This document shows, one piece after another, positions 10,301 to 55,727 of a stretch of 64,000 bases of DNA; position 1 is the first letter of the stretch, and each line of letters begins with the position of its first letter. Source of the stretch: Patescibacteria group bacterium (GTDB lineage: Bacteria > Patescibacteriota > Patescibacteriia > XYB2-FULL-38-15); contig JBAZJZ010000001.1 of assembly GCA_041650995.1 (NCBI GenBank), positions 7,891 to 71,890 on the forward strand, given 5' to 3'. Both the position numbers and the translations under genes were made by a program. The notes beneath the pieces are model-generated. The model made no database searches, was not told the origin of the DNA, and was given only the letters and a program-made list of their open reading frames with translations.

Positions 10301-10789
10301 AATATTTATTTTATTACCGTGAGAACCGTGGATCAAAAACCATATTTTGACGCTGATTTTAAAAAGAAATTATTTTGTCTTTGCCTAAAGGCAGGACTCC
10401 AAAAATTTGAGATTCATTTATACGCCTGGGTGTTGTTGAATAACCATTATCATCTGTTATTTAAGATTCTGTCAGGGGAAAATTTATCTAAATTTATTAA
10501 TTTTATTAACGGCAAAAGCTCTTTTGAACTAAATAAATTGGAGAACGAACAAGGCCGTAAAATTTGGTACCAATATTTTGACCATTGTATTCGCGACGAA
10601 GCTGATTTTTGGAAACATTTTAATTACATTCACCAAAATCCGGTAAAGCATGGTTTGCGCACCGACTTGGCGGGCATTTTTGCTTATCCCTTTTCAAGCG
10701 CGAAAAATTGGAGTAAAATAAAAGGGGAAGAGTGGGTTGATTCGTGTTTTGAACTTTATCCGATTGTTGATTTTATTGCGGGGGAATAA
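10211..10789 (+). mobile_element. REP-associated tyrosine transposase (RAYT; IS200/IS605-like HuH Y1 transposase). The start is uncertain: the ORF is open from 10103 through the repeats
   Basis: It carries the HuH motif (LLNNHYHLLF) and the catalytic Tyr motif (NYIHQNPVKHGL) at the expected spacing. The N-terminal beta-strand region reads IYFITVRT. It is flanked on both sides by REP hairpin arrays, which is the classic RAYT/REP organisation. Confidence 0.75.
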
Positions 10790-10794
10790 CGCCG

Positions 10795-11166
10795 CGGTCG
10801 GAATGACAGCCTTCAGGCTGTTACGATAACACGCTAAAGCGTGTCATTCCACAAAAACATAGATTGACGGTCAGACTGACAGCGCCTGCAACTTTTCGGA
10901 ATGACAGCCTTCAGGCTGTTAAAACTAGATAACACGCTAAAGCGTGTCATTCCACAAAAACATAGATTGACGGTCAGACTGACAGCGCCTGCAACTTTTC
11001 GGAATGACAGCCTTCAGGCTGTTAAAACTAGATAACACGCTAAAGCGTGTCATTCCACAAAAACATAGATTGACGGTCAGACTGACAGCGCCTGCAACTT
11101 TTCGGAATGACAGCCTTCAGGCTGTTATGGTAACACCCTAAAGGCTGTCACTCCGGGTATTACTCC
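10795..11166. repeat. tandem array (~3.5 copies, period 98-103 bp) of REP double-hairpin units, downstream flank of the RAYT gene
   Basis: The unit is ggaatgACAGCCttcaGGCTGTtacgataACACGCtaaaGCGTGTcattccacaaaaacatagattgacggtcagactgacagcgcctgcaacttttc. It repeats head-to-tail at 10801, 10899, 11002 and 11105 (the last copy is partial and variant). Confidence 0.85.
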
Positions 11167-11210
11167 AAAATTTAATTTAAAAAACATTTTAATAATTAAT
11201 TTAAAAACCT

Positions 11211-11870
11211 ATGACCAAAAAAACAAAAATCATTATCCTTGTCGTAGTCCTCGTTTTAATTCTTGGCGGACTTCTTGCCTGGAAAACATGGAGTTGGCAA
11301 GGAAAGATGGGGGATCTGAGAAACTATGTTTCTTCCTTATTTTCCAGTGAAGAAGAAAATTTGCCTGAAGATATTAAAGCAGCTTATGAAACTCTAAAAA
11401 ATGATCCGTCGGACACAAGCTCTTACATAAAAATCGCACTCTGGAAAAGGGACAATGGCGATTTGGAAGAGGCGGTTAGATTGTATGAAAAAGCCTTGGA
11501 AATTAAACCGGACGACACGCTTCTTTTGATGAATATCGCTGATCTTTACATAAGAAATGAACAATACCCTGAGGCGGCCGGGGCTTATGTAAAAGTTATG
11601 GAAAGCAATCCAAAGTGGCTTGCCGCTTATCGCGGTTTGGCTGATCTCTACCGCTATCAAATGCCGGAGAGAAAAATTGAAATTCCAAGTATTTTGAAAA
11701 AAGGTCTGGAAGCCAATTCAGAAAATGAACTTTACTTTGTTGGGCCGCTTGCTATTTACTACAAAGATTTTGGTCCGGAAGACGAGGCCATTCGCTGGTA
11801 CGAGCGCTTGATTGAACTTGATCCGGAAAATACTACGGCGAAGAATGAACTTGAAGAATTGAAGAAATAA
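11211..11870 (+). CDS. tetratricopeptide (TPR) repeat protein with an N-terminal TM anchor
   Basis: It has a TM helix (IIILVVVLVLILGGLLAW) and TPR-like helices (AVRLYEKALEIKPDD, AAGAYVKVMESNPKW, AIRWYERLIELDPEN). Confidence 0.7.
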   Translation: MTKKTKIIILVVVLVLILGGLLAWKTWSWQGKMGDLRNYVSSLFSSEEENLPEDIKAAYETLKNDPSDTSSYIKIALWKRDNGDLEEAVRLYEKALEIKPDDTLLLMNIADLYIRNEQYPEAAGAYVKVMESNPKWLAAYRGLADLYRYQMPERKIEIPSILKKGLEANSENELYFVGPLAIYYKDFGPEDEAIRWYERLIELDPENTTAKNELEELKK

Positions 11871-14909: not shown

Positions 14910-17663
14910 ATGGCAGAAAAAATCAAAAAAGGCTTTTTTAAAGTATTACCATTGTCGGTGGTAGTATTTTTAGTCATCGGCGTGTCCGTCGGTGTCTGGT
15001 ATAGTTTACCAGTTAACCCGGCTAAGGCAGCTGCCTTAGCGCCTTTGACTACCACATACCTAGACGCGGATGCCGACGGAACAGTTGATAATATCAGACT
15101 TACTTTCACTAATGTTACTGCCTGCACTTATGAAGCGGGTGATTGGGCAGTGGGCGCGGCTGGGACAATAAATGTTACGGCTGTAAATGGTTTTACTAAC
15201 GCTGCTTCTTGTACGACCGATGAATATATCGACGTAGCTGTTACAACTACTCCGGATATTACCGGCGGGGCAGTTGATCCGAGACTTGACTATACAGACG
15301 CGGGTGTGGCAGGAAGTGTAGTCGCCGATGGCAATCAGGATGCGGCTAATTTTACGGCGACTGACGCGGCTGCGCCATATCTTGTTTCCGCAACTTACGC
15401 AGATTCCGACGCGGGTGGTAATATCGATGAAGTTACTTTTGTATTTTCCGAGTCGACAACTTGGACCGCCATGACTGCTGCGGATTGGGCATTTTCAGCG
15501 GTCGGTGATGTTAATTTGGCGGGAGATTTTCTCATTGGCGATTGTACTGCCTCTCCGGCTGTAACCTATACCTGTACTGATGCGGCCAATGCGCACATTA
15601 CTTCCGACGCCAATAAAACCGGTAAACAAACCACGGGAGGAAGTGAGCCAACCTTTACTTATACTAATGCCCACAACGATATCAACGACACAGTCAACAA
15701 TACCGCCACTTTTGGGCCGAGATCTTTAGTTGATGGCGCCGCTCCGTTAATTTTGACGCGCGTCACTAAAGACACTAATTCAACTTCGGGCGCTGCGGGA
15801 ACAGCTGATGGTGATTTGGATGGCGTTCTTGCTACCTTTACCGAGGTCATGGATGCTTCCTCTGTCGCCGTCACGGATTTCGTTATTACTCTAAATGATG
15901 GTACGGCTAAAACCGAAGCATATGCAGACACAACCGATGACACTACTTTATTTTTTGGCTTGAGCAACCCAACTGCCAATGATACTTATGATCTTTTAAA
16001 GTTGCAGATCACTGGTGGTGATGGCATTTTGGATTATGCCGGCGTTAGTTTTGTTGCTGAAGGAGCTTCCTCGGCCGCAACCGATGGCGCTGCTCCAGTC
16101 ATTGTGACCACTTCTCCGGCCGACAACGCAACCGACGTGGCTTTAGACGCAAACCTTGTTATCACCTTCTCTGAACCAATGACTACAGCCTCTGTCACCG
16201 GCGCGATTGCCAGAGTTCCGTCCTTTACTCTTGGTGCGGCAGGTTGGACGGCTGGCAATACAGTCTTGACTTACGCGGCACATGATGCGTGGGCCGGCAT
16301 GCAGAACTACATTATTACCTTAGCTGGAACTATCGCTTCGGCTGCCGTGGGTGATCCTGATCTTGGAACTGGTCCGGTCGCCAATCCCTTTGACTTTACA
16401 ACAGTCGCGGCTTCAAGCGGCGGCAGCAGCGGCGGCAGCAGTTTACCTGCTTCTGTAACCGTCACTGCTCCGAATGGCGGGGAAACTTTGGTCGGCGGTT
16501 CAGCATATAGCATCACTTGGTCTGCGGCGGGTGTCACTGATACTGTGAGCATCTACTACTCCCTTGATTCCGGAATTAATTTCCCATACACCATTGCCAC
16601 GGGCGAAACAAATGATGGATCTTACATATGGACAGTGCCGAACATTGGGACAAGTACTGCTAAAATAAAAGTAGCTGCCGGTTCTTTAAATGATATTTCC
16701 GACGCGAATTTTACAATCACTTATTCTACAACAGAGGTTTCTGCCTCAAACTCTACGATTGTTGCTTCTCCAACCTCAGTTGTTGCCAATGGGACTTCTA
16801 AATCAACCGTTACAGTCACTGTCAAAGACACAAGCAACAATTTGCTTTCCGGCAAGACTGTGACCTTAGCCTCAAGTCGAGGCACTTCTGATACGGTCAC
16901 TACTGTGACGGGTACGACTGGCGCAAATGGCGTTGCCACTTTTGAAGTGAAGTCCGGTACTGCCGGCACTTCAACTTACACGGCGACTGCCGCGGGTGTA
17001 ATTCTTAGCCAAACCGTTTCAGTTGTCTTTTCAGCTCCTGGCGAAACTCCTCCAGTTGGCGAAACCCCAGTTTCTTTGAGCGTTGGCGATTTGATTAAGA
17101 GTAGTTTGAGTTCTTCTGTTTACTATTATGGCTCTGATGGTAAACGCCACGTCTTCCCAAATGAAAAGACTTACAAGAGTTGGTATGTTGATTTTACTGG
17201 CATTAAGATTATTCCCGCTTCTCAACTTCAGGGATTGGCTCTTGGTAACAATGTCACTATCCGCCCCGGCACTGTGCTTGTGAAAATCCAAACAGATCCT
17301 AAAGTTTACGCCGTTGAACCAGGCGGTCTTCTCCGCTGGGTGCCGACCGAAGCCCGCGCCACCACCTTGTACGGTTCTGCCTGGGCGACAAAGATTGTTG
17401 ATGTCCCGGTGGTTTTCTGGGGCGACTATACCTTTGGAAGCGACATAACAACTGATGCTCATCCAACAGGAGCAATAATCCAATATTCTGGCTCAACAGA
17501 CAAGTACTACATCCAGGGATCGGCAAGGCGATTAATCTCCACAGCTGGCTTTACTGCCAATCACTTCCAGCTCGGATACGTCCTTTCTGTTCCAACCACA
17601 TTGTCTTATTCTCTGGGTTCGCCCTTGACTGCTGAGGAGACTGCGCTTACGAGGATTTTTTAG
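14910..17663 (+). CDS. large secreted multidomain surface protein (917 aa), first member of a tandem paralog pair
   Basis: It has a signal peptide (MAEKIKKGFFKVLPLSVVVFLVIG). It carries repeated ~100-aa modules beginning with DADADGTVDNIRLTF / DSDAGGNIDEVTFVF (DxDxDG Ca-loop-like). An SbsA-type Ig-like module follows (APVIVTTSPADNATDVALDANLVITFSEPMTTASV). There is a beta-sandwich module (VTAPNGGETLVGGSAYSITWSAAG...GSYIWTVPN) and a Big_1 module (SNSTIVASPTSVVANGTSKSTVTVTVKDTSNNLLSGKTVTLASS). The C-terminal conserved domain is GDLIKSSLSSSVYYYGSDGKRHVFP...KVYAVEPGGLLRWVP. Confidence 0.7.
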   Translation: MAEKIKKGFFKVLPLSVVVFLVIGVSVGVWYSLPVNPAKAAALAPLTTTYLDADADGTVDNIRLTFTNVTACTYEAGDWAVGAAGTINVTAVNGFTNAASCTTDEYIDVAVTTTPDITGGAVDPRLDYTDAGVAGSVVADGNQDAANFTATDAAAPYLVSATYADSDAGGNIDEVTFVFSESTTWTAMTAADWAFSAVGDVNLAGDFLIGDCTASPAVTYTCTDAANAHITSDANKTGKQTTGGSEPTFTYTNAHNDINDTVNNTATFGPRSLVDGAAPLILTRVTKDTNSTSGAAGTADGDLDGVLATFTEVMDASSVAVTDFVITLNDGTAKTEAYADTTDDTTLFFGLSNPTANDTYDLLKLQITGGDGILDYAGVSFVAEGASSAATDGAAPVIVTTSPADNATDVALDANLVITFSEPMTTASVTGAIARVPSFTLGAAGWTAGNTVLTYAAHDAWAGMQNYIITLAGTIASAAVGDPDLGTGPVANPFDFTTVAASSGGSSGGSSLPASVTVTAPNGGETLVGGSAYSITWSAAGVTDTVSIYYSLDSGINFPYTIATGETNDGSYIWTVPNIGTSTAKIKVAAGSLNDISDANFTITYSTTEVSASNSTIVASPTSVVANGTSKSTVTVTVKDTSNNLLSGKTVTLASSRGTSDTVTTVTGTTGANGVATFEVKSGTAGTSTYTATAAGVILSQTVSVVFSAPGETPPVGETPVSLSVGDLIKSSLSSSVYYYGSDGKRHVFPNEKTYKSWYVDFTGIKIIPASQLQGLALGNNVTIRPGTVLVKIQTDPKVYAVEPGGLLRWVPTEARATTLYGSAWATKIVDVPVVFWGDYTFGSDITTDAHPTGAIIQYSGSTDKYYIQGSARRLISTAGFTANHFQLGYVLSVPTTLSYSLGSPLTAEETALTRIF

Positions 17664-30750: not shown

Positions 30751-31428
30751 TTAAAATTTATTTTTTGATTTTAATATTTTAATAATTTTGGCAGTTTCGT
30801 AATAAGCCGTAGTCATAACGCGGGTCATAAATTTTACGGCGGGAATAAAATCGTTCGAATCGGACGCGTTTAGACAATCCAGATATTGACATCGATTATC
30901 TTTAATGATGAAATTTATTAAAATAGGAAATGACTTCTCAGATAAATCCTCGGATCTTAAAATTAGGCACATTAATAAACGAGCAGTTCGTCCATTGCCG
31001 TCAGTGAATGGATGTATGGCGACAAACTGATGGTGGATATACCACGCCATAAACACCTTACGAAGAATTTCATACTGTTTGTCCGTGAATGTATTTTTTT
31101 CTATTTTGTTTAAGAAAAGTAGCTTAAACTTATTTTTCCATAGGCGTTTGTTGTTAATAAAATCAATTAGATCTAGAATTTTGTATTCTATTTGCCATGC
31201 CTCACAGGGCGAGAAAGTTTTTTTATGAATTTCTATTTTATCCGTGGCTGTTCTGTATCTTCCTGCTTCTTTTGGCTTGTCGGCTAATACTTCTTTATGC
31301 AGCATAAGAAAAAAGCTCTTTGGTATAAAGAGTTTTTTTCTTTTTGCTTGTTTAAAGTAAGAAAGAGCCACGGCCGTCGCCTCGGTTAGATTTTCTGTTT
31401 CTATTTTTAGGTTGGCATTCTTTCTCAT
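30751..31428 (-). CDS. Fic/DOC family protein (canonical AMPylation motif)
   Basis: It has the Fic core motif HPFTDGNGRTARLL (HxFx[DE]GNGRxxR). It is 225 aa. No intramolecular [ST]xxxE[GN] inhibitory motif was found. Confidence 0.85.
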   Translation of the reverse strand: MRKNANLKIETENLTEATAVALSYFKQAKRKKLFIPKSFFLMLHKEVLADKPKEAGRYRTATDKIEIHKKTFSPCEAWQIEYKILDLIDFINNKRLWKNKFKLLFLNKIEKNTFTDKQYEILRKVFMAWYIHHQFVAIHPFTDGNGRTARLLMCLILRSEDLSEKSFPILINFIIKDNRCQYLDCLNASDSNDFIPAVKFMTRVMTTAYYETAKIIKILKSKNKF

Positions 31429-36772: not shown

Positions 36773-37786
36773 ATGAATTTATTAGTTTGTGGAGGCGCCG
36801 GATTTATTGGTTCAAATTTTGTCCGGCAAATGTTAAAAAAATATCCGGATTATAAAATCGTAAATTACGACAAGCTAACTTACGCGGGAAATCTGGATAA
36901 TTTGCGCGACGTAGAAAATAATCCCAACTACACTTTTGTCCAAGGTGATATTTGCGATTTGGAAAAATTAAACCAAGTTATTGCCGAGCACAAAATTAGC
37001 CATGTGATTAATTTTGCCGCGGAAACTCACGTTGACCGTTCAATCCATGGTGGCTGCAAAGATTTTGTTATGACAAATACGCTCGGTGTGCAGATGATTT
37101 TAGACGCCGTGCGAGCCAATAATATAGAAAAATTTGTAAATGTTTCAACCGATGAAGTTTACGGCGCGTTGAGACTTGATGAAGATAGAAAATTTATTGA
37201 GTCCACTCCGATCTGGCCCAATATGCCTTATGCCGCGGCCAAGGCCGGCGGAGATTTAATGTGTAACGCATATTTTGTCACCCACAAAGTTCCGGTCGTG
37301 GTGACTCATTGTTCAAATAACTACGGACCATATCAATTTCCCGAAAAATTAATTCCATTCTTTATTTTCCGCTTGATTAATAATCAAAAAGTTCCGGTTT
37401 ACGGCGATGGACTTTATGTCCGCGACTGGATTCATGTTACAGACCATGCTGCCTCTCTGGATTTGCTGCTTCACAAGGGCGTGCCAGGAGAAGTTTATAA
37501 TATCGGTGTTGATAATGAACGCAGCAACATGGAGATTACAAAGATGATGTTAGAAATTATGGGCAAGGGAGAAGAGATGATTGAGTACGTTACTGATCGT
37601 CCGGGACACGATCGCCGCTATGCGATTGATGCTTCAAAAATTTTGACTTTGGGATGGCAGCCAAATTATACGCGTGATAAATTTGAGCAAGGCTTGAAAG
37701 AAACTGTGGAATGGTACTTGGCGAATAAAGAATGGGTAGAAAAATTGCAAAAGCGAAAAGAAGAGTTAAATCCGCATATTAAATAA
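36773..37786 (+). CDS. rfbB: dTDP-glucose 4,6-dehydratase
   Basis: LLVCGGAGFIGSNFVRQML...NYDKLTYAGNLDNL...YAAAKAGGDLM is a high-identity pattern for RmlB. Confidence 0.9.
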   Translation: MNLLVCGGAGFIGSNFVRQMLKKYPDYKIVNYDKLTYAGNLDNLRDVENNPNYTFVQGDICDLEKLNQVIAEHKISHVINFAAETHVDRSIHGGCKDFVMTNTLGVQMILDAVRANNIEKFVNVSTDEVYGALRLDEDRKFIESTPIWPNMPYAAAKAGGDLMCNAYFVTHKVPVVVTHCSNNYGPYQFPEKLIPFFIFRLINNQKVPVYGDGLYVRDWIHVTDHAASLDLLLHKGVPGEVYNIGVDNERSNMEITKMMLEIMGKGEEMIEYVTDRPGHDRRYAIDASKILTLGWQPNYTRDKFEQGLKETVEWYLANKEWVEKLQKRKEELNPHIK

Positions 37787-37789
37787 TTT

Positions 37790-38203
37790 ATGGCAAAAGA
37801 ATTTAAAATTTTTGAATTAAAGAAAGTTGACACGCCGAAATTTGTGATGAGTCCGATGGAGTTGAAAGATTATATTGATTTTGAAGTGAAGAGAGTTTAT
37901 TTTATTACAAAGCCCCAATCTCCGACCGGGGCGCACTGCCATAAAGTTGAAGAAGAATTTTTTGTTTTGGTTCAGGGAACATGCACAGCAGTTATCGATC
38001 GCGGACAGGGTCTTGAGGAAATCCCGCTTACCGGACCGACCGGAGCGCTTTATGTTCCAAATTTTGTCTGGCATCATTTTAAAGATTTTTCCCCGGACGC
38101 GGTACTTTTGGCCTTGTCATCTACAAATTATAGTCCCGACCGGAGTGATTATGTTGAAGACTACGAAGAATTTAAAATAGTGAATCCTCATTATCAAAAA
38201 TAA
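37790..38203 (+). CDS. WxcM-like cupin / dTDP-4-keto-6-deoxyhexose 3,4-isomerase (FdtA)-like protein
   Basis: It is 137 aa with a cupin core (PTGAHCHKVEEEFFVLVQGTC...D) typical of FdtA/WxcM C-terminal domains. It takes the place of rfbC in the operon. Confidence 0.55.
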   Translation: MAKEFKIFELKKVDTPKFVMSPMELKDYIDFEVKRVYFITKPQSPTGAHCHKVEEEFFVLVQGTCTAVIDRGQGLEEIPLTGPTGALYVPNFVWHHFKDFSPDAVLLALSSTNYSPDRSDYVEDYEEFKIVNPHYQK

Positions 38204-38426
38204 ATTATAAATATATGCGAGAAGGAATAAATCCGGAAAGAGAAAAAGAGAGAATAAGAGAACGTTTTCGAAGTTTAGAGGGCATGATTTTAAGAGGAGG
38301 AAAACAGGGTGAAGACGCAAAAAAGGCGTTATTTAGAGAATTTGGTTCCCAGGTTTTGGGGATTATTGTAGAATTGGAGAGGGAAGCAAAGAAAAAGAAA
38401 AGATAATTAGTTTGGATTAAACAAAA

Positions 38427-38447
38427 ACGGCCGGGTGGCCGTTTTTT
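38427..38447 (+). terminator. rho-independent terminator after the fdtA-like gene
   Basis: ACGGCCGGGTGGCCGTTTTTT. Confidence 0.7.
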
Positions 38448-38531
38448 AGTATTGACATTTTTCAGTTTTTGTTTTAATTTATTTGTATCAGCAAGAAGCC
38501 AAAAGGTGGCTTCAGGGAAGGAGAAGAAGGA

Positions 38532-39119
38532 ATGAAAGAGACCATCACCTTGGCGGAGGCGCGCAAGCGCTTGGGCGAGAATGTCGTCGTCTGTCTCGAG
38601 CCCGATGCGGTCCGCGAGAAGAAGGTCACGGAGAACAAGGCGGCCGAGCTCTGGATTTTCGATCCGGCTACCGGATGGAGCTGCCGGGGCGACGGCAAAT
38701 TCCACGACGCCCGCTACGTGGATCGCGGCGGCTGGGGACAGATCGCGCTCTACGAGGAGCCGAACGTGCCGCAGCCGGAGGACGGTAGTCCGCGCGTTGT
38801 GGGCCATGTCGTGATCGAGATGAACAGGTACGGCGCGCCGCGGGTGCGGGTGCGGAGGACCAAGGGTCTGAATGGCGAGGTCTTGGAACTGAAGCCGTCC
38901 AGTATCTCCAAGGGAGAATTGGCCGACAAGGGCAAGCTCGTCGGTACGTTCTACGATTCGAACTTCGTCGAGTCGAACCCCCAGCGCATCATGGGGATGA
39001 TAGCCATCTATCTCGTGAATGCTGACTTCCCGGACGAAGAGGGCATGACTCCGGACGAGTTCCGGAGGCAGTCCACCGACGGTCGCTCGCTTTCGGCCTT
39101 GGCCAAGGCCGGGCTGTAG
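38532..39119 (+). CDS. hypothetical protein (195 aa) encoded by a GC-rich (~65 %GC, strongly GC3-biased) foreign insert
   Basis: It has a strong RBS (GGAAGGAGAAGAAGGA-ATG), an upstream TTGACA, and its own terminator (39174-39207). Its codon usage is unlike every neighbouring gene. There is no motif recognisable from sequence alone. Confidence 0.55.
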   Translation: MKETITLAEARKRLGENVVVCLEPDAVREKKVTENKAAELWIFDPATGWSCRGDGKFHDARYVDRGGWGQIALYEEPNVPQPEDGSPRVVGHVVIEMNRYGAPRVRVRRTKGLNGEVLELKPSSISKGELADKGKLVGTFYDSNFVESNPQRIMGMIAIYLVNADFPDEEGMTPDEFRRQSTDGRSLSALAKAGL

Positions 39120-39173
39120 TCGTCCGTGGCCTGATCCGGGCAAGAACAAGGAGGAAGAACACTACACCGTTTT

Positions 39174-39207
39174 GGCAACTAGCAGTTGCCGAGGCGGTGT
39201 CTTTTTT
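39174..39207 (+). terminator. rho-independent terminator of the GC-rich insert
   Basis: GGCAACTagcAGTTGCCgaggcggtgtCTTTTTTATT. Confidence 0.6.
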
Positions 39208-39283
39208 ATTGTTAAGGATTGACGAAAAGCAGCGATTTTAGTAAAGTAGAAAGAGTAGTAAAATGTTAAAATTTAGCTTAAAT

Positions 39284-40126
39284 ATGAAGGTTTTAATCAT
39301 TGGGGCAAAGGGGATGTTGGGGCAAGAGTTAGCGCGGGAATTTAGCGGAAACGGCTATGAGGTTTTGACGTGGGATAAAGAGGAAATTGATATTACAAAA
39401 AAAGATTTAGTTTTGGAAAAAATAAAATCTGCGAGGCCAGAAATTATTATTAACGCCGCGGCTTATAATGCGGTGGATAAAATTGAAGAGGGAGAGAAAG
39501 ATTTGGCTGAAGCGGTTAATGGTTATGCTGTTGGGAATTTATCTTTAACAGCCGAGGTGGTTGGCGCGATTTTGGTTCATTATAGCACCGACTATGTTTT
39601 TGACGGAAAAGAGATTGATGGTTATAAAGAAGATGACGAGCCAAGACCGCAAAGCGTGTACGCCGCGTCAAAACTTTTGGGAGAAGGGCAATTGAAAAAT
39701 GAAAAATATTATTTGATAAGAACCTCGCGGTTGTTTGGCAAACCGGCAACAAGCGAAGGAGCAAAGAAAAGTTTTGTTGATGTAATGTTAAAATGCGCCG
39801 AGGAAAAAGATTGTCTGGAATTGGTTGATGAAGAAGTGAGTTCGCCGACTTATGTTTTGGATCTCGCGAAACGAACGAGAGAAATTATTGAATGGGAAAA
39901 ACCGTTTGGCATTTATCACGTAACGAACTCCGGCTGCTGCACCTGGTACGGTTGGGCCAAGAAGACATTTGAATTATCCGGAAAAAGTATTAAATTGGCG
40001 CCGGTTGGCGCCGAGAGATTTCCTCGTCCCGCCAAGAGGCCAAAATATTCGGTTTTGTTAAATACCAAACTTCCGCCAATGCGAAAATGGGAAGAAGCGT
40101 TGTTGGATTATCTAAAAACGAAATAA
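39284..40126 (+). CDS. rfbD: dTDP-4-dehydrorhamnose reductase (alternative start at 39263)
   Basis: MKVLIIGAKGMLGQEL...YNAVDKIEE...YAASKLLGE is an RmlD-type SDR. Confidence 0.8.
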   Translation: MKVLIIGAKGMLGQELAREFSGNGYEVLTWDKEEIDITKKDLVLEKIKSARPEIIINAAAYNAVDKIEEGEKDLAEAVNGYAVGNLSLTAEVVGAILVHYSTDYVFDGKEIDGYKEDDEPRPQSVYAASKLLGEGQLKNEKYYLIRTSRLFGKPATSEGAKKSFVDVMLKCAEEKDCLELVDEEVSSPTYVLDLAKRTREIIEWEKPFGIYHVTNSGCCTWYGWAKKTFELSGKSIKLAPVGAERFPRPAKRPKYSVLLNTKLPPMRKWEEALLDYLKTK

Positions 40127-40130
40127 ATTT

Positions 40131-41201
40131 ATGAAAGCCCTGATTACGGCCGGAGGAAGAGCAACAAGGCTCAGACCAATTACTTATACAACCAATAAAC
40201 ATTTGATTCCCATCGCTAACAAACCGATGTTGTTTTACGCGTTGGAAAAAATAGCAGAAACCGGTGTGAAAGAAGTCGGGATAAATATTAATCCTGGAGA
40301 AAAAGAAATTCAGCCGGTAGTTGGCGACGGCAGTCGCTGGGGTTTAAAAATTTCCTATATTGAGCAATCCGGCGGGCCGAAAGGATTGGCGCATATTGTC
40401 CGGAACGCCAAGGATTTTTTGGGCGATGAACCTTTTATTTTTTATCTCGGCGATAATATTATTTTGGGAAGCATCAAAAGATTTGTTGATAAATTTGTCA
40501 ACGAAAAACTTAACGTTCTTTTGGCTTTCGCCCGCGTATCTGATCCGGAAAGATTCGGTGTGCCAGTTATTTCTAACGGAAAAGTTCTCCGCGTTGAAGA
40601 AAAACCAAGTCAGCCCAAAAGCAATTTTGCCCAGACGGGAATTTATATTTATGACCACCGTATTTTTGACGCCGTAGAAAATATTCCACCCTCACCGCGC
40701 GGTGAGTATGAAATTTCCGATGCCAACACTTATTTGATTGAAAAAGGTTTTAATGTTGGTTATGAGGAAATTACCGGTTGGTGGAAAGACACGGGAAAGC
40801 CGGAAGATTTGCTTGAAGGAAATCAATTAATTTTGCATGATTTGTCAGATATAAAAAATGAGGCCGATGTGGCCCCAGGAGTAATTATTCAGGGAAAAGT
40901 AAAAATTGAAAAAGGAACTTACATTGGCGGGAAATCTCTGATCCGCGGACCGGTTGTAATCGGAGCGAATTGTGTAATTAATGACAGCTACATCGGACCC
41001 TATACTTCAGTAGGCAATAACACAAAAATCACCAATACGGAAATTGAGCACTCAATTATTTTTGATAATGCGGAAATAAAATGCGGCAAGAGAATTGTTG
41101 ATAGCTTGGTTGGCCATAACACAGTCGTTGCTTCGTCCTGTGATAGTTTACCGCTCGGCCATAAAATGATTATCGGCGATAATTCAATAGTGGAGTTATA
41201 G
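40131..41201 (+). CDS. rfbA: glucose-1-phosphate thymidylyltransferase, long form (nucleotidyltransferase plus C-terminal left-handed beta-helix)
   Basis: MKALITAGGRATRLRPITYTTNKHLIPIANKPMLFYALE is the sugar-1-P nucleotidyltransferase signature. The C-terminal hexapeptide-repeat region (IGANCVINDSYIGPYTSVGNNTKI) is typical of archaeal/CPR-type long RmlA. Confidence 0.8.
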   Translation: MKALITAGGRATRLRPITYTTNKHLIPIANKPMLFYALEKIAETGVKEVGININPGEKEIQPVVGDGSRWGLKISYIEQSGGPKGLAHIVRNAKDFLGDEPFIFYLGDNIILGSIKRFVDKFVNEKLNVLLAFARVSDPERFGVPVISNGKVLRVEEKPSQPKSNFAQTGIYIYDHRIFDAVENIPPSPRGEYEISDANTYLIEKGFNVGYEEITGWWKDTGKPEDLLEGNQLILHDLSDIKNEADVAPGVIIQGKVKIEKGTYIGGKSLIRGPVVIGANCVINDSYIGPYTSVGNNTKITNTEIEHSIIFDNAEIKCGKRIVDSLVGHNTVVASSCDSLPLGHKMIIGDNSIVEL

Positions 41202-54784: not shown

Positions 54785-54866
54785 AAAGTATTACTTTTTG
54801 TTATCCACGCTCGTTCGGAAATGAAATTAAAATTTCATTTCTCTCACTCGCTTGATAATAAAAAAA

Positions 54867-54917
54867 CAAGGACAGAATTTTGTGAAACCTTTCCTCCCGG
54901 AGGGTTTTTCTGTCCTT
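54867..54917 (-). terminator. rho-independent terminator of the GGDEF gene (minus strand)
   Basis: On the minus strand it reads CAAGGACAGAAaaaccctccgggaggaaaggtttcacaaaaTTCTGTCCTTG followed by TTTTTTTATT. Confidence 0.6.
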
Positions 54918-54926
54918 GAGGTTCTT

Positions 54927-55607
54927 CTAGCGCTTGACGGCGACCACGCGGTTGCGGCCCCCACGCTTCGCGCGGTACATCATCATGTCGGCTGCGTGGA
55001 TCAGGGGAGCCGAGAGTTCGGGGCGATACCATTCAGCCACGCCGATGCTGATTGTGACAGGGATCTCGTGTTCAGCGCAGTCGAAGGGTTTGTCGGCTAC
55101 CGCCTTGCGTAGCCGTTCTGCCGCGATCGCGGCTTGTTCCAGAGTGTTGTTGCGGAGAACTCCGAGAAATTCTTCGCCGCCGTGCCTGCCGATGACATCG
55201 TAGTCTCGCAGGGTTTCGCGGAAACGTTTCGCCAGTTCGACGAGGACGGCGTCCCCGACTTCGTGGCCGAGTTCGTCGTTGACGGCCTTGAAGTGGTCAA
55301 CGTCGACAAAGAGAACCGAGAGAGGCGTGCCGTAGCGCCGGGCGTAAGCTACTTCTGCTTCGACGGTTTCGTCGATGCGGTAGCGGTTGGGCAGGCCGGT
55401 CAGAGGGTCGGTCCCGACCATCTCTTGAAGGTCGGTATTTTTGGACCGAAGTGTTTCGTTCTCATCAAAGAGTCTTCCGTTTTCTGCCCGAAGACTCCGG
55501 ATCAACGCCTCGTCCTCCGCGAGTGCTTCGTATGCCGCTGCAAGAGCGATCCACAGCTGCCGCGGCTTGAGTTTCCCGAATTGGTCAAAAACCCACTCAA
55601 GATTCAT
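54927..55607 (-). CDS. GGDEF-domain diguanylate cyclase (GGEEF active site) with an N-terminal coiled coil; GC-rich (~58-60 %GC) foreign-composition gene
   Basis: DPLTGLPNRYRIDE...LFVDVDHFKAVNDELGHEVGD...RHGGEEFLGVL...ISIGVAEW is the complete GGDEF signature. It has an RBS (GGGAGG) and a consensus promoter on the minus strand (see next feature). Confidence 0.85.
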   Translation of the reverse strand: MNLEWVFDQFGKLKPRQLWIALAAAYEALAEDEALIRSLRAENGRLFDENETLRSKNTDLQEMVGTDPLTGLPNRYRIDETVEAEVAYARRYGTPLSVLFVDVDHFKAVNDELGHEVGDAVLVELAKRFRETLRDYDVIGRHGGEEFLGVLRNNTLEQAAIAAERLRKAVADKPFDCAEHEIPVTISIGVAEWYRPELSAPLIHAADMMMYRAKRGGRNRVVAVKR

Positions 55608-55634
55608 GATTACCTCCCTCTGCTGTTATCTATC

Positions 55635-55663
55635 GCAACTTTTTATTTTAGGATAAAGTATTG
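55635..55663 (-). promoter_or_regulatory. sigma70 consensus promoter (TTGACA-N17-TAAAAT) driving the GGDEF gene
   Basis: On the minus strand: TTGACA aaaccaatactttatcc TAAAAT, then ...GGGAGGtaatc ATG. Confidence 0.5.
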
Positions 55664-55727
55664 GTTTTGTCAAGATAAAATAAAACCTCTCAATCTAAGG
55701 TTTTATTGAATTTAAGGAAATAAAAAA

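Follow-up and report, generated by a model that had tools for sequence, protein, structure and literature searches.

A long-resident GC-rich gene with a Nudix/EvaA-like fold in the dTDP-sugar gene cluster of Patescibacteria

The nucleoside diphosphate (NDP)-hexose 2,3-dehydratases typified by EvaA (PF03559; PDB 4J7G) consist of two tandem Nudix-like domains, about 450-480 aa in all, which form pockets A and B (PMC8987622). Here, we describe gene X (38532..39119, + strand), an open reading frame (ORF) of 588 nt from a Patescibacteria genome, located in a window that comprises the entire 64,000-nt stretch of DNA analyzed (assembly GCA_041650995.1, contig JBAZJZ010000001.1, positions 7,891 to 71,890); coordinates given without a locus designation refer to this window. 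The X protein, with a single domain of 195 aa, departs from the two-domain architecture of EvaA, has no homology to these dehydratases at the level of hidden Markov models, and does not allow their catalytic residues to be mapped onto its sequence. The Nudix NDP-sugar and ADP-ribose pyrophosphatases, such as NUDT5, the GDP-mannose hydrolase YffH/NudK of E. coli, and the NDP-sugar hydrolase of Bdellovibrio, are matched by the fold of X with TM-scores of ~0.35, and the Nudix box (GX5EX7REUXEEXGU) was found, using both strict and relaxed regular expressions, neither in X nor in any of 130 members of the family; X likewise has no match to PF00293 at E≤1.

The composition of X can be compared with that of horizontally acquired compositional islets and of recombination hotspots shaped by GC-biased gene conversion (gBGC), of which the mouse Fxy gene is an example. 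With the acquired islets, the slot occupied by X shares a sharp compositional jump, an accessory function, and variable co-cargo. Unlike such islets, X is universal and syntenic in its clade, is about the age of its neighbors, and is accompanied by no integrase, transposase, tRNA, or flanking repeats, and its deviation in composition is toward high GC and is seen again in hosts across the whole range of GC content. The joint occurrence of very high GC at third codon positions (GC3), GC-rich amino acid codons, fast protein evolution, and clear recombination is what the bacterial gBGC hypothesis envisages, but the elevation at X halts at AT-rich regulatory spacers, and the effect is far larger than those known to us from bacteria. 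X falls within two known kinds, that of compositional islets and that of Nudix-fold sugar-nucleotide proteins, of which it is a divergent example, and its composition persists for unusually long. As a whole, the best explanation, to which we give roughly even chances, is that X is an old, genuine, and separately transcribed accessory gene, long resident in the dTDP-sugar (rfb) cluster of Patescibacteria, with an EvaA-like sugar-nucleotide fold and a GC content that would be sustained by recombination.

Composition, age, and synteny of gene X

In a window with an overall GC content of 41.8%, X reaches 62.8%, with GC at the three codon positions (GC1/2/3) of 0.61/0.43/0.84, compared with GC3 of 0.36-0.41 in the four rfb neighbors and 0.29-0.47 in other genes of the window. 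At four-fold degenerate sites, GC is 0.88 in X versus 0.45-0.53 in the rfb neighbors, and codon choice is inverted, with AAG accounting for 10 of 12 Lys codons in X versus 18 of 94 in the neighbors, and GAG for 15 of 18 Glu codons versus 25 of 90. The 300-nt windows over X include the GC maximum of the entire 64 kb (0.673; mean 0.418, SD 0.061, that is, ~4 SD), and among the ~55 long ORFs, only X and a GGDEF gene (54927..55607) are GC3 outliers. The GC-rich block extends from the start codon to the terminator, including a 3' untranslated region (UTR) of 57% GC, whereas the 5'UTR and the spacer to rfbD have 35% and 27% GC, respectively. An earlier note, made from the sequence alone, had drawn attention to this jump, which the sliding windows and codon-position GC bear out; it had also taken the long antisense ORFs over X for composition artefacts, and indeed these ORFs (e.g., 38205..39149, minus strand, 314 aa, GC3 0.51) lack the GC1/2/3 pattern of coding sequences. 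Both the compositional foreignness of X and its self-contained expression signals are real.

Homologous loci, designated L with a number, were collected: 23 from scans of genome and metagenome collections and 3 more through exact-protein look-ups. Over 37867..39294 (1428 nt), a stretch that spans both junctions of X, the window is matched with 100% identity by a contig of an independent Logan assembly (L001), and a database entry for the exact X protein lists it as hypothetical, encoded on a 567-kb contig of a Patescibacteria metagenome-assembled genome (MAG). In at least 10 other Patescibacteria assemblies from different samples, an equally GC-rich X occupies the same slot, flanked by the fdtA-like gene and rfbD-rfbA. 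Moreover, in L002-L005 and L012, the order glycosyltransferase, h197, HIT, rfbB, fdtA, X, rfbD, rfbA, PEGA, murA, ctpA is that of the window, and X forms an island of 63-67% GC (GC3 0.76-0.92) in a background of ~40-42% GC. The linkage to rfb genes extends to L006-L010, L014, L016, L017, L019, L023, L024, and L029-L031, and X adjoins rfbA or rfbD even where RfbA is just 54-58% identical to that of the window (L006-L010, L016, L017, L019, and L024). A DNA alignment of five genomes shows that the entire cassette is conserved, from the upstream terminator through the TTGACA element, the AT-rich 5'UTR with its small hairpin, the Shine-Dalgarno (SD) sequence, and the GC-rich coding sequence to the terminator and the promoter-like site of rfbD.

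At synonymous sites, X has diverged from its close relatives by 0.5-0.95 (dS; Nei-Gojobori) and the neighboring genes by 0.8-1.4, values of the same order; therefore, X is about as old in the clade as the genes that flank it. Protein identity of X among relatives is 61-76%. No integrase or transposase gene lies between 34 and 44 kb in the window, the sole tRNA being located at 55.7 kb; no flanking direct or att-like repeats were found at the X slot; and searches of IMG/VR viral contigs, INPHARED phages, and PLSDB plasmids for X homologs yielded no match. Hence, of the features expected of a recent island, X displays the atypical composition and codon usage, but its presence is not patchy, its divergence is not younger than that of its surroundings, and signatures of mobility are lacking. 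The earlier note had read X as a recent acquisition or an artefact. This reading is wrong: no close relative lacks X, the dS of X is on a par with that of its neighbors, its linkage to rfb is deep, and an rfb operon lacking the insert, for which that note advised a search, did not turn up, the slot being occupied by X in every relative examined. In one relative, a Falkowbacteria MAG (L002 10001-10648; P0004), the X homolog has a divergent 215-aa C-terminus, and tblastn finds residues 161-186 of the usual C-terminus encoded in a different frame (10482-10559), which indicates a frameshift due to a sequencing error or pseudogenization.

The neighbors of X, all encoded on the + strand, are host-like in composition. 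Upstream are the genes for an RfbB-type dTDP-glucose 4,6-dehydratase (36773..37786), a 137-aa FdtA-like cupin (37790..38203; PF05523, E 4.5e-27), and a small, variable, AT-rich ORF of 63 aa (38215..38406), the last of the upstream unit; downstream are an RmlD-type reductase (rfbD; 39263 or 39284..40126) and an RmlA-type nucleotidyltransferase (rfbA; 40131..41201). Pfam annotation of these genes agrees with the earlier placement of X between rfbB/fdtA-like and rfbD/rfbA. The product of the 63-aa ORF is charged and coiled-coil-like, with no family match, and in all close relatives its position is held by an ORF of 55-72 aa belonging to at least three unrelated sequence types.

The ribosome-binding site, upstream TTGACA, and intrinsic terminator previously ascribed to X are all present in the sequence, again on the + strand. 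A hairpin with a perfect 10-nt inverted repeat and a T-run (AAAAACGGCC-gggt-GGCCGTTTTT; 38423..38446) terminates the rfbB/fdtA-like/small-ORF unit, and its GCGGCC..GGCCGC-TTTTT core is kept in L002-L005. It is followed by a promoter-like site (38452..38480) with a -35 element TTGACA (38452-38457), a 17-nt spacer, and a weak -10 element TAATTT (38475-38480); in the five-genome alignment, TTGACA and the TAA of the -10 element are invariant, consistent with a promoter function. A small 5'UTR hairpin (GAAGCC-aaaaggt-GGCTTC; 38495..38513), the stem of which is kept in L002-L005 without covariation, lies directly 5' of the strong SD region (GGAAGGAGAAGAAGGA; 38516..38531), which abuts the ATG of X at 38532. 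The 3'UTR contains a relic intercistronic ribosome-binding motif (AGAACAAGGAGGAAGAACACT; 39143..39163), which marks the site of another gene, Y, in relatives, and the unit ends in an intrinsic terminator consisting of a 17-pair hairpin and a T-tract (39164..39210), which is kept in L002-L005, with a second copy in L005 after an extra cargo gene. The rfbD-rfbA unit has its own promoter-like site (TTGACG-17-TAAAGT; 39219..39247). With the upstream unit ending in its own terminator and rfbD having this site, both conserved in relatives, the rfb genes are, contrary to what had been supposed, not just a single operon divided by X. An Rfam scan of 38100..39400 revealed no structured RNA near threshold.

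Protein family and fold

The X protein (195 aa, pI 5.8, cytoplasmic) belongs to an unannotated and apparently Patescibacteria-specific family, judging from the searches performed. A word-indexed search recovered 57 homologs and an exhaustive search 83 clusters at 50% identity, nearly all 170-270 aa in length; the named sources are all Patescibacteria MAGs (Falkowbacteria, Uhrbacteria, and Paceibacterota). Pfam yielded no match for X or for 36 other family members, 10 distant ones included. Sequence searches of NCBIfam, PADLOC, and PDB with X were empty, as were profile searches of PDB at E≤10, and the sole PHROG match is weak (phrog_5273, E 1.3e-3) and represents a family without an assigned function. 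Conserved motifs were nevertheless apparent in the alignment of X: W41, R52-G-D54, E75-E76-P-N, L113-N-G, E119, P122-S-S-x-S-K127, N149-P-Q-R-I, and D183-G-R185. Among 27 aligned sequences, 9 residues are invariant and 18 are near-invariant; the invariant ones include the glutamates E76 and E119, of note given the catalytic Glu pair of the NDP-hexose 2,3-dehydratases. The ratio of nonsynonymous to synonymous divergence (dN/dS) is ~0.25-0.35, and X is, on these figures and its GC1/2/3 pattern, coding and constrained.

X adopts a Nudix-like alpha/beta/alpha sandwich that is structurally similar to EvaA, with the dTDP-4-keto-6-deoxyglucose 2,3-dehydratase EvaA (PDB 4J7G) being its closest solved relative. 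The payload, the function of which the earlier note had called unknown, is therefore no longer wholly blank, although the accompanying statement that X carries no recognizable sequence motif stands, given the empty Pfam, NCBIfam, PADLOC, and PDB sequence searches. The genomic context points in the same direction as the fold: RfbB and RfbA, which would supply a dTDP-hexose substrate, are encoded on either side of X in the window, as they are at most of the related loci, and in L006, L009, and L016, X adjoins a gene for a single-domain PF03559 protein (E 1.4e-18; E 8e-14 to EvaA), which in L009 is itself an island of 57-58% GC in a host of 40% GC. In hhalign comparisons, the X family and these single-domain proteins align weakly (pairwise E 5.7e-4 to 2e-3), with W..TG.i.RgDGkF..W.Q and G.N..vLe..PS..S in register.

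On balance, we slightly favor the interpretation that X is a very divergent, half-size Nudix/EvaA-fold protein of the rfb pathway with a dTDP-sugar-binding role. Most likely, X would bind the product of the neighboring RfbA and RfbB, a dTDP-(4-keto-6-deoxy)hexose, and would act either as an enzyme of half size, dehydratase-like or isomerase-like and presumably dimeric, or as a noncatalytic sugar-nucleotide-binding partner. Several observations weigh against this interpretation: the TM-scores of the fold matches are ~0.35, the hhalign probability is just 14-30%, X has a single domain against the two of EvaA, and significant sequence homology of X to EvaA, PF03559, or PF00293 was not found. A role as a replacement for RmlC, which the apparent lack of RmlC between rfbB and rfbD had brought up, was rejected, given that X has no PF00908 match and a Nudix-like fold rather than a cupin barrel, and that the adjacent 137-aa gene is the cupin.

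Mosaicism, the variable islet, and similar cassettes

X evolves 3-6 times faster than its neighbors at nonsynonymous sites (dN 0.17-0.32 versus 0.03-0.13, Nei-Gojobori), and divergence is unevenly distributed along the gene. Between L005 and L011, the first 45 codons of X are 48-54% identical in nucleotide sequence and the remainder, the last two-thirds of the gene, 93-97%; between the window and L002, the core is 90-92% identical, above their flanking genes, and the 5' end 64-81%. With a PHI-like permutation test giving p<0.0005, X is, on this comparative evidence, a mosaic, recombining gene. Recombination moves alleles of X between lineages, possibly with the conserved AT-rich flanks, which contain the promoter and the terminator, as homology arms. 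In L004, RfbB and RfbA are 95% and 89% identical to their counterparts in the window, whereas the adjacent HIT and glycosyltransferase proteins are just 54-56% identical; thus, the rfb block has passed as a whole between rather distant lineages.

Within the clade, the slot holds a small GC-rich islet of variable content, with X as its constant core. In relatives, the fdtA-rfbD slot contains up to five GC-rich genes, arranged as separate cassettes with AT-rich promoter/terminator spacers, and the cargo includes Y (~71 aa), genes of 233 and 65 aa, and a stand-alone fragment of 120 aa corresponding to the N-terminus of a type II/IV secretion ATPase (GC3 0.63-0.82). X is the sole constant member, with Y, the 233-aa gene, and the T2SSE-like gene being patchy among relatives, and the window has the minimal one-gene form. 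Gene Y (67-76 aa), located directly 3' of X (L002 10611-10829, L004 10612-10827, L005 ~10588-10806, and L031 2306-2536), encodes a protein that has a conserved RW..LC.EELRAMV motif, is basic at its N-terminus, and has no match in Pfam, PHROG, or PADLOC; no copy of Y is present in the window, L003, or L011. The motif GAACAAGGAGG brackets Y on both sides in L002, L004, and L005, whereas the window (39143-39163) and L003 keep one hybrid copy, a pattern consistent with Y having apparently been lost through recombination or deletion between the GAACAAGGAGG repeats.

The T2SSE-like gene, not found in the window, encodes a stand-alone GC-rich protein of 120-129 aa (L005 10943-11329, the same as L012 4429-4815; L030 5199-5561; L031 2689-3051) that matches just the N-terminal 110 positions of PF00437 (E 2.8e-6) and might be a regulator or decoy of a pilus ATPase; the gene constitutes a separate cassette that has a second copy of the X terminator. 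The 233-aa gene (GC 0.57-0.59) lies upstream of X (L030 3014-3715, L029 64-765), and its product has no match in Pfam, PHROG, or PADLOC. For the co-cargo genes as a set, PHROGs and PADLOC were empty, save one PHROG without an assigned function for the T2SSE-like fragment. Small, unrelated, AT-rich genes occur at some of these loci as well: in L009, a PaaX-middle/Cas2-like gene (10820-11341, - strand; PF20803, E 2e-14) lies between X and the PF03559 gene, and in L029, a gene for a bAvd/23S-rRNA-IVP four-helix protein (2633-2974) lies between rfbD and rfbA.

The second GC3 outlier of the window (54927..55607, - strand; GC 59%, GC3 0.69) encodes a 226-aa protein with a coiled coil and a GGDEF diguanylate cyclase domain (PF00990, E 1.4e-44). 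Its layout is that of X, with a terminator, a TTGACA-17-TAAAAT promoter, an AT-rich UTR, GGAGG, a GC-rich coding sequence, and a long hairpin (flanks 54790-55700). The slot, between murG and tRNA-Lys/GT4, is the same in the L002 and L005 genomes and in L028, with 57-60% GC versus 40-42% in the flanks. Between genomes, the GGDEF proteins are 42-51% identical while FtsW and GT4 are 87-95% identical, and the GGDEF gene has dN of 0.44-0.52 and dS of 1.2-2.2. In the L002 genome, a gene for an IS200/IS605-type Y1 transposase (PF01797; L025 7892-8425) is present between murG and ftsW; it is not found at that position of the window.

Another GC-rich monocistronic cassette, with a TTGACA promoter and the SD sequence AAGGAGGG, encodes a predicted membrane protein of 92 aa in L002 (2143-2421, - strand), between the GT4 gene and the gene for a 710-aa membrane protein. 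GC-rich segments occupy the corresponding slot in L003 (2251-2575) and L005 (2151-2475), with 57-60% GC in L002, L003, and L005, and the window has an AT-rich 225-aa ORF (30751..31428) there instead. Together with the GGDEF gene, these segments make X one instance of a recurrent pattern in the clade. The moderate GC peaks near 16 kb of the window are accounted for by two adjacent ORFs of 917 and 945 aa (14910..17663 and 17833..20670, + strand; GC2 0.51-0.54), which have their first 24 residues (MAEKIKKGFFKVLPLSVVVFLVIG) in common and look like paralogous surface proteins.

Possible causes of the high GC content

In 17 of 20 loci, the GC3 of X exceeds the median of the flanking genes by 0.11 to 0.45, and even in hosts of 58-64% GC, it is still higher, at 0.92-0.97. 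The high GC of X would accordingly be a persistent property of the family rather than a mark of recent arrival, and most likely it would be sustained by recombination, be it by a continual influx of alleles, by GC-biased conversion, or by both. Recombination-associated GC bias would yield high GC3, GC-rich amino acid codons, fast protein change, and recombination together, as seen in X. Active maintenance as such, whether by recombination and gBGC or by selection on the transcript, we consider possible but somewhat short of an even chance.

The foremost competing scenario, which we view as plausible but doubtful, is an ancient horizontal import with slow amelioration, whereby an ancestor of the clade with ~40% GC acquired X, along with Y and other cargo, from a higher-GC lineage of Patescibacteria; the resident allele was possibly replaced, and decay toward the host composition would have been slowed by occasional GC-rich re-import. 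The turnover between G or C and A or T (S/W) at third positions of the neighboring genes, 0.30 in pairwise comparison, bears directly on this scenario: at such a rate, host mutation pressure predicts a GC3 of at most 0.77 for X even with a start at 100%, and the observed value is 0.84-0.85. Likewise, under a two-state nonstationary maximum-likelihood (ML) model, an equilibrium GC3 of ~0.85 is not rejected, whereas the host value of 0.40 is (2dlnL of 25.7 for 7 taxa and 6.5 for 5), although this model assumes a single tree, an assumption that recombination in X violates, and carries suggestive weight only. A decay model with an equilibrium of 0.40 and a root GC3 of ~0.96, for its part, fits the summary statistics, reproducing both the singleton counts and the site spectrum. 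The polarized excess of GC->AT singletons (26:1 for nucleotides, 33:2 for S/W) was discarded as evidence of amelioration because simulations give the same ratio at a GC-rich equilibrium; the 33:2 S->W excess is expected under both stationarity and amelioration and is uninformative.

Other evidence also cuts both ways. The slot cargo, being uniformly GC-rich, accessory, and variably present, fits the textbook picture of DNA gained by horizontal transfer; hosts of 51-59% GC, in which X has a GC3 of 0.83-0.94, occur in the clade that is sister to the window X; and the rfb block itself moves between lineages, as the L004 comparison illustrates. In basal family members (L018, L021, and L022), moreover, GC3 is host-like (0.29-0.36), so the X protein does not require high GC. 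Import, however, would need a donor richer still, X being GC3-richer even than hosts of 58-64% GC, while the family was found just in Patescibacteria. Furthermore, GC stays host-like (27-35%) throughout the inter-cassette spacers, the promoter, and the 5'UTR as far as the start codon, and the slot contains no mobility genes, att-like repeats, or tRNA. For maintenance by recombination, the host-like basal members, the good fit of the decay model, and the uninformative singleton excess are points to be weighed on the negative side, as is the sharpness of the AT-rich inter-cassette spacers, which is awkward for a process acting on conversion tracts; also, to our knowledge, GC-biased conversion of such size (+45 points of GC3) has not been described in bacteria.

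Selection on the transcript or its decoding, by which monocistronic accessory and regulatory genes such as X, the GGDEF gene, and the other cassettes would be kept GC-rich, appears improbable. The cause could be mRNA stability against AU-preferring RNases or toxins, or rare G/C-ending codons tied to the state of the tRNA pool. The recurrence of the same arrangement of terminator, TTGACA, AT-rich 5'UTR, GGAGG, GC-rich coding sequence, and strong hairpin at X, the GGDEF gene, and the 92-aa gene of L002 fits such selection, as do the confinement of the GC-rich block to the segment from start codon to terminator, the 57% GC 3'UTR included, and the persistence of the pattern over a dS of ~1. Basal family members nonetheless manage without high GC, and the shift in GC1 and GC2, that is, in amino acid composition, points to a mutational or conversion-type pressure over codon choice alone. 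Finally, an assembly chimera, contamination, or an engineered insert, an option raised in the earlier note and suggested just by the sharp compositional boundaries and textbook expression signals, has a negligible probability given the independent assembly that is identical across both junctions, the occurrence, in at least 10 other MAGs or metagenome contigs, of GC-rich homologs whose AT-rich flanks are homologous as well, and the divergence of the X protein among relatives, as natural evolution predicts.

Beyond X itself, we tentatively propose, as a conjecture that is more apt to fail than to hold, that there is a clade-wide and, more weakly, phylum-wide class of self-contained, fast-evolving, recombining accessory genes that are actively held 15-25 GC points above the genome while their synonymous sites saturate. 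Its members would be X and the GGDEF gene and, in relatives, Y, the 233-aa protein, the PilB-N-terminal fragment, and the 92-aa membrane protein, with the elevation confined to the segment between start codon and terminator. If true, this class would represent unusually strong bacterial gBGC at recombination hotspots or composition-based regulation, via mRNA stability or codon-dependent translation, rather than a footprint of horizontal transfer.

For the calling of genomic islands, X is a warning, in that a textbook "foreign" compositional island is an old, syntenic, clade-wide gene; in these genomes, a GC anomaly alone neither dates nor proves transfer. If the GC elevation is actively maintained, the X locus and its sister cassettes would offer a tractable natural system for the study of recombination-associated GC bias or composition-based regulation. 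The tight linkage of the X family to dTDP-sugar genes, in turn, provides a concrete biochemical hypothesis for the cell-surface sugar chemistry of these host-attached organisms.

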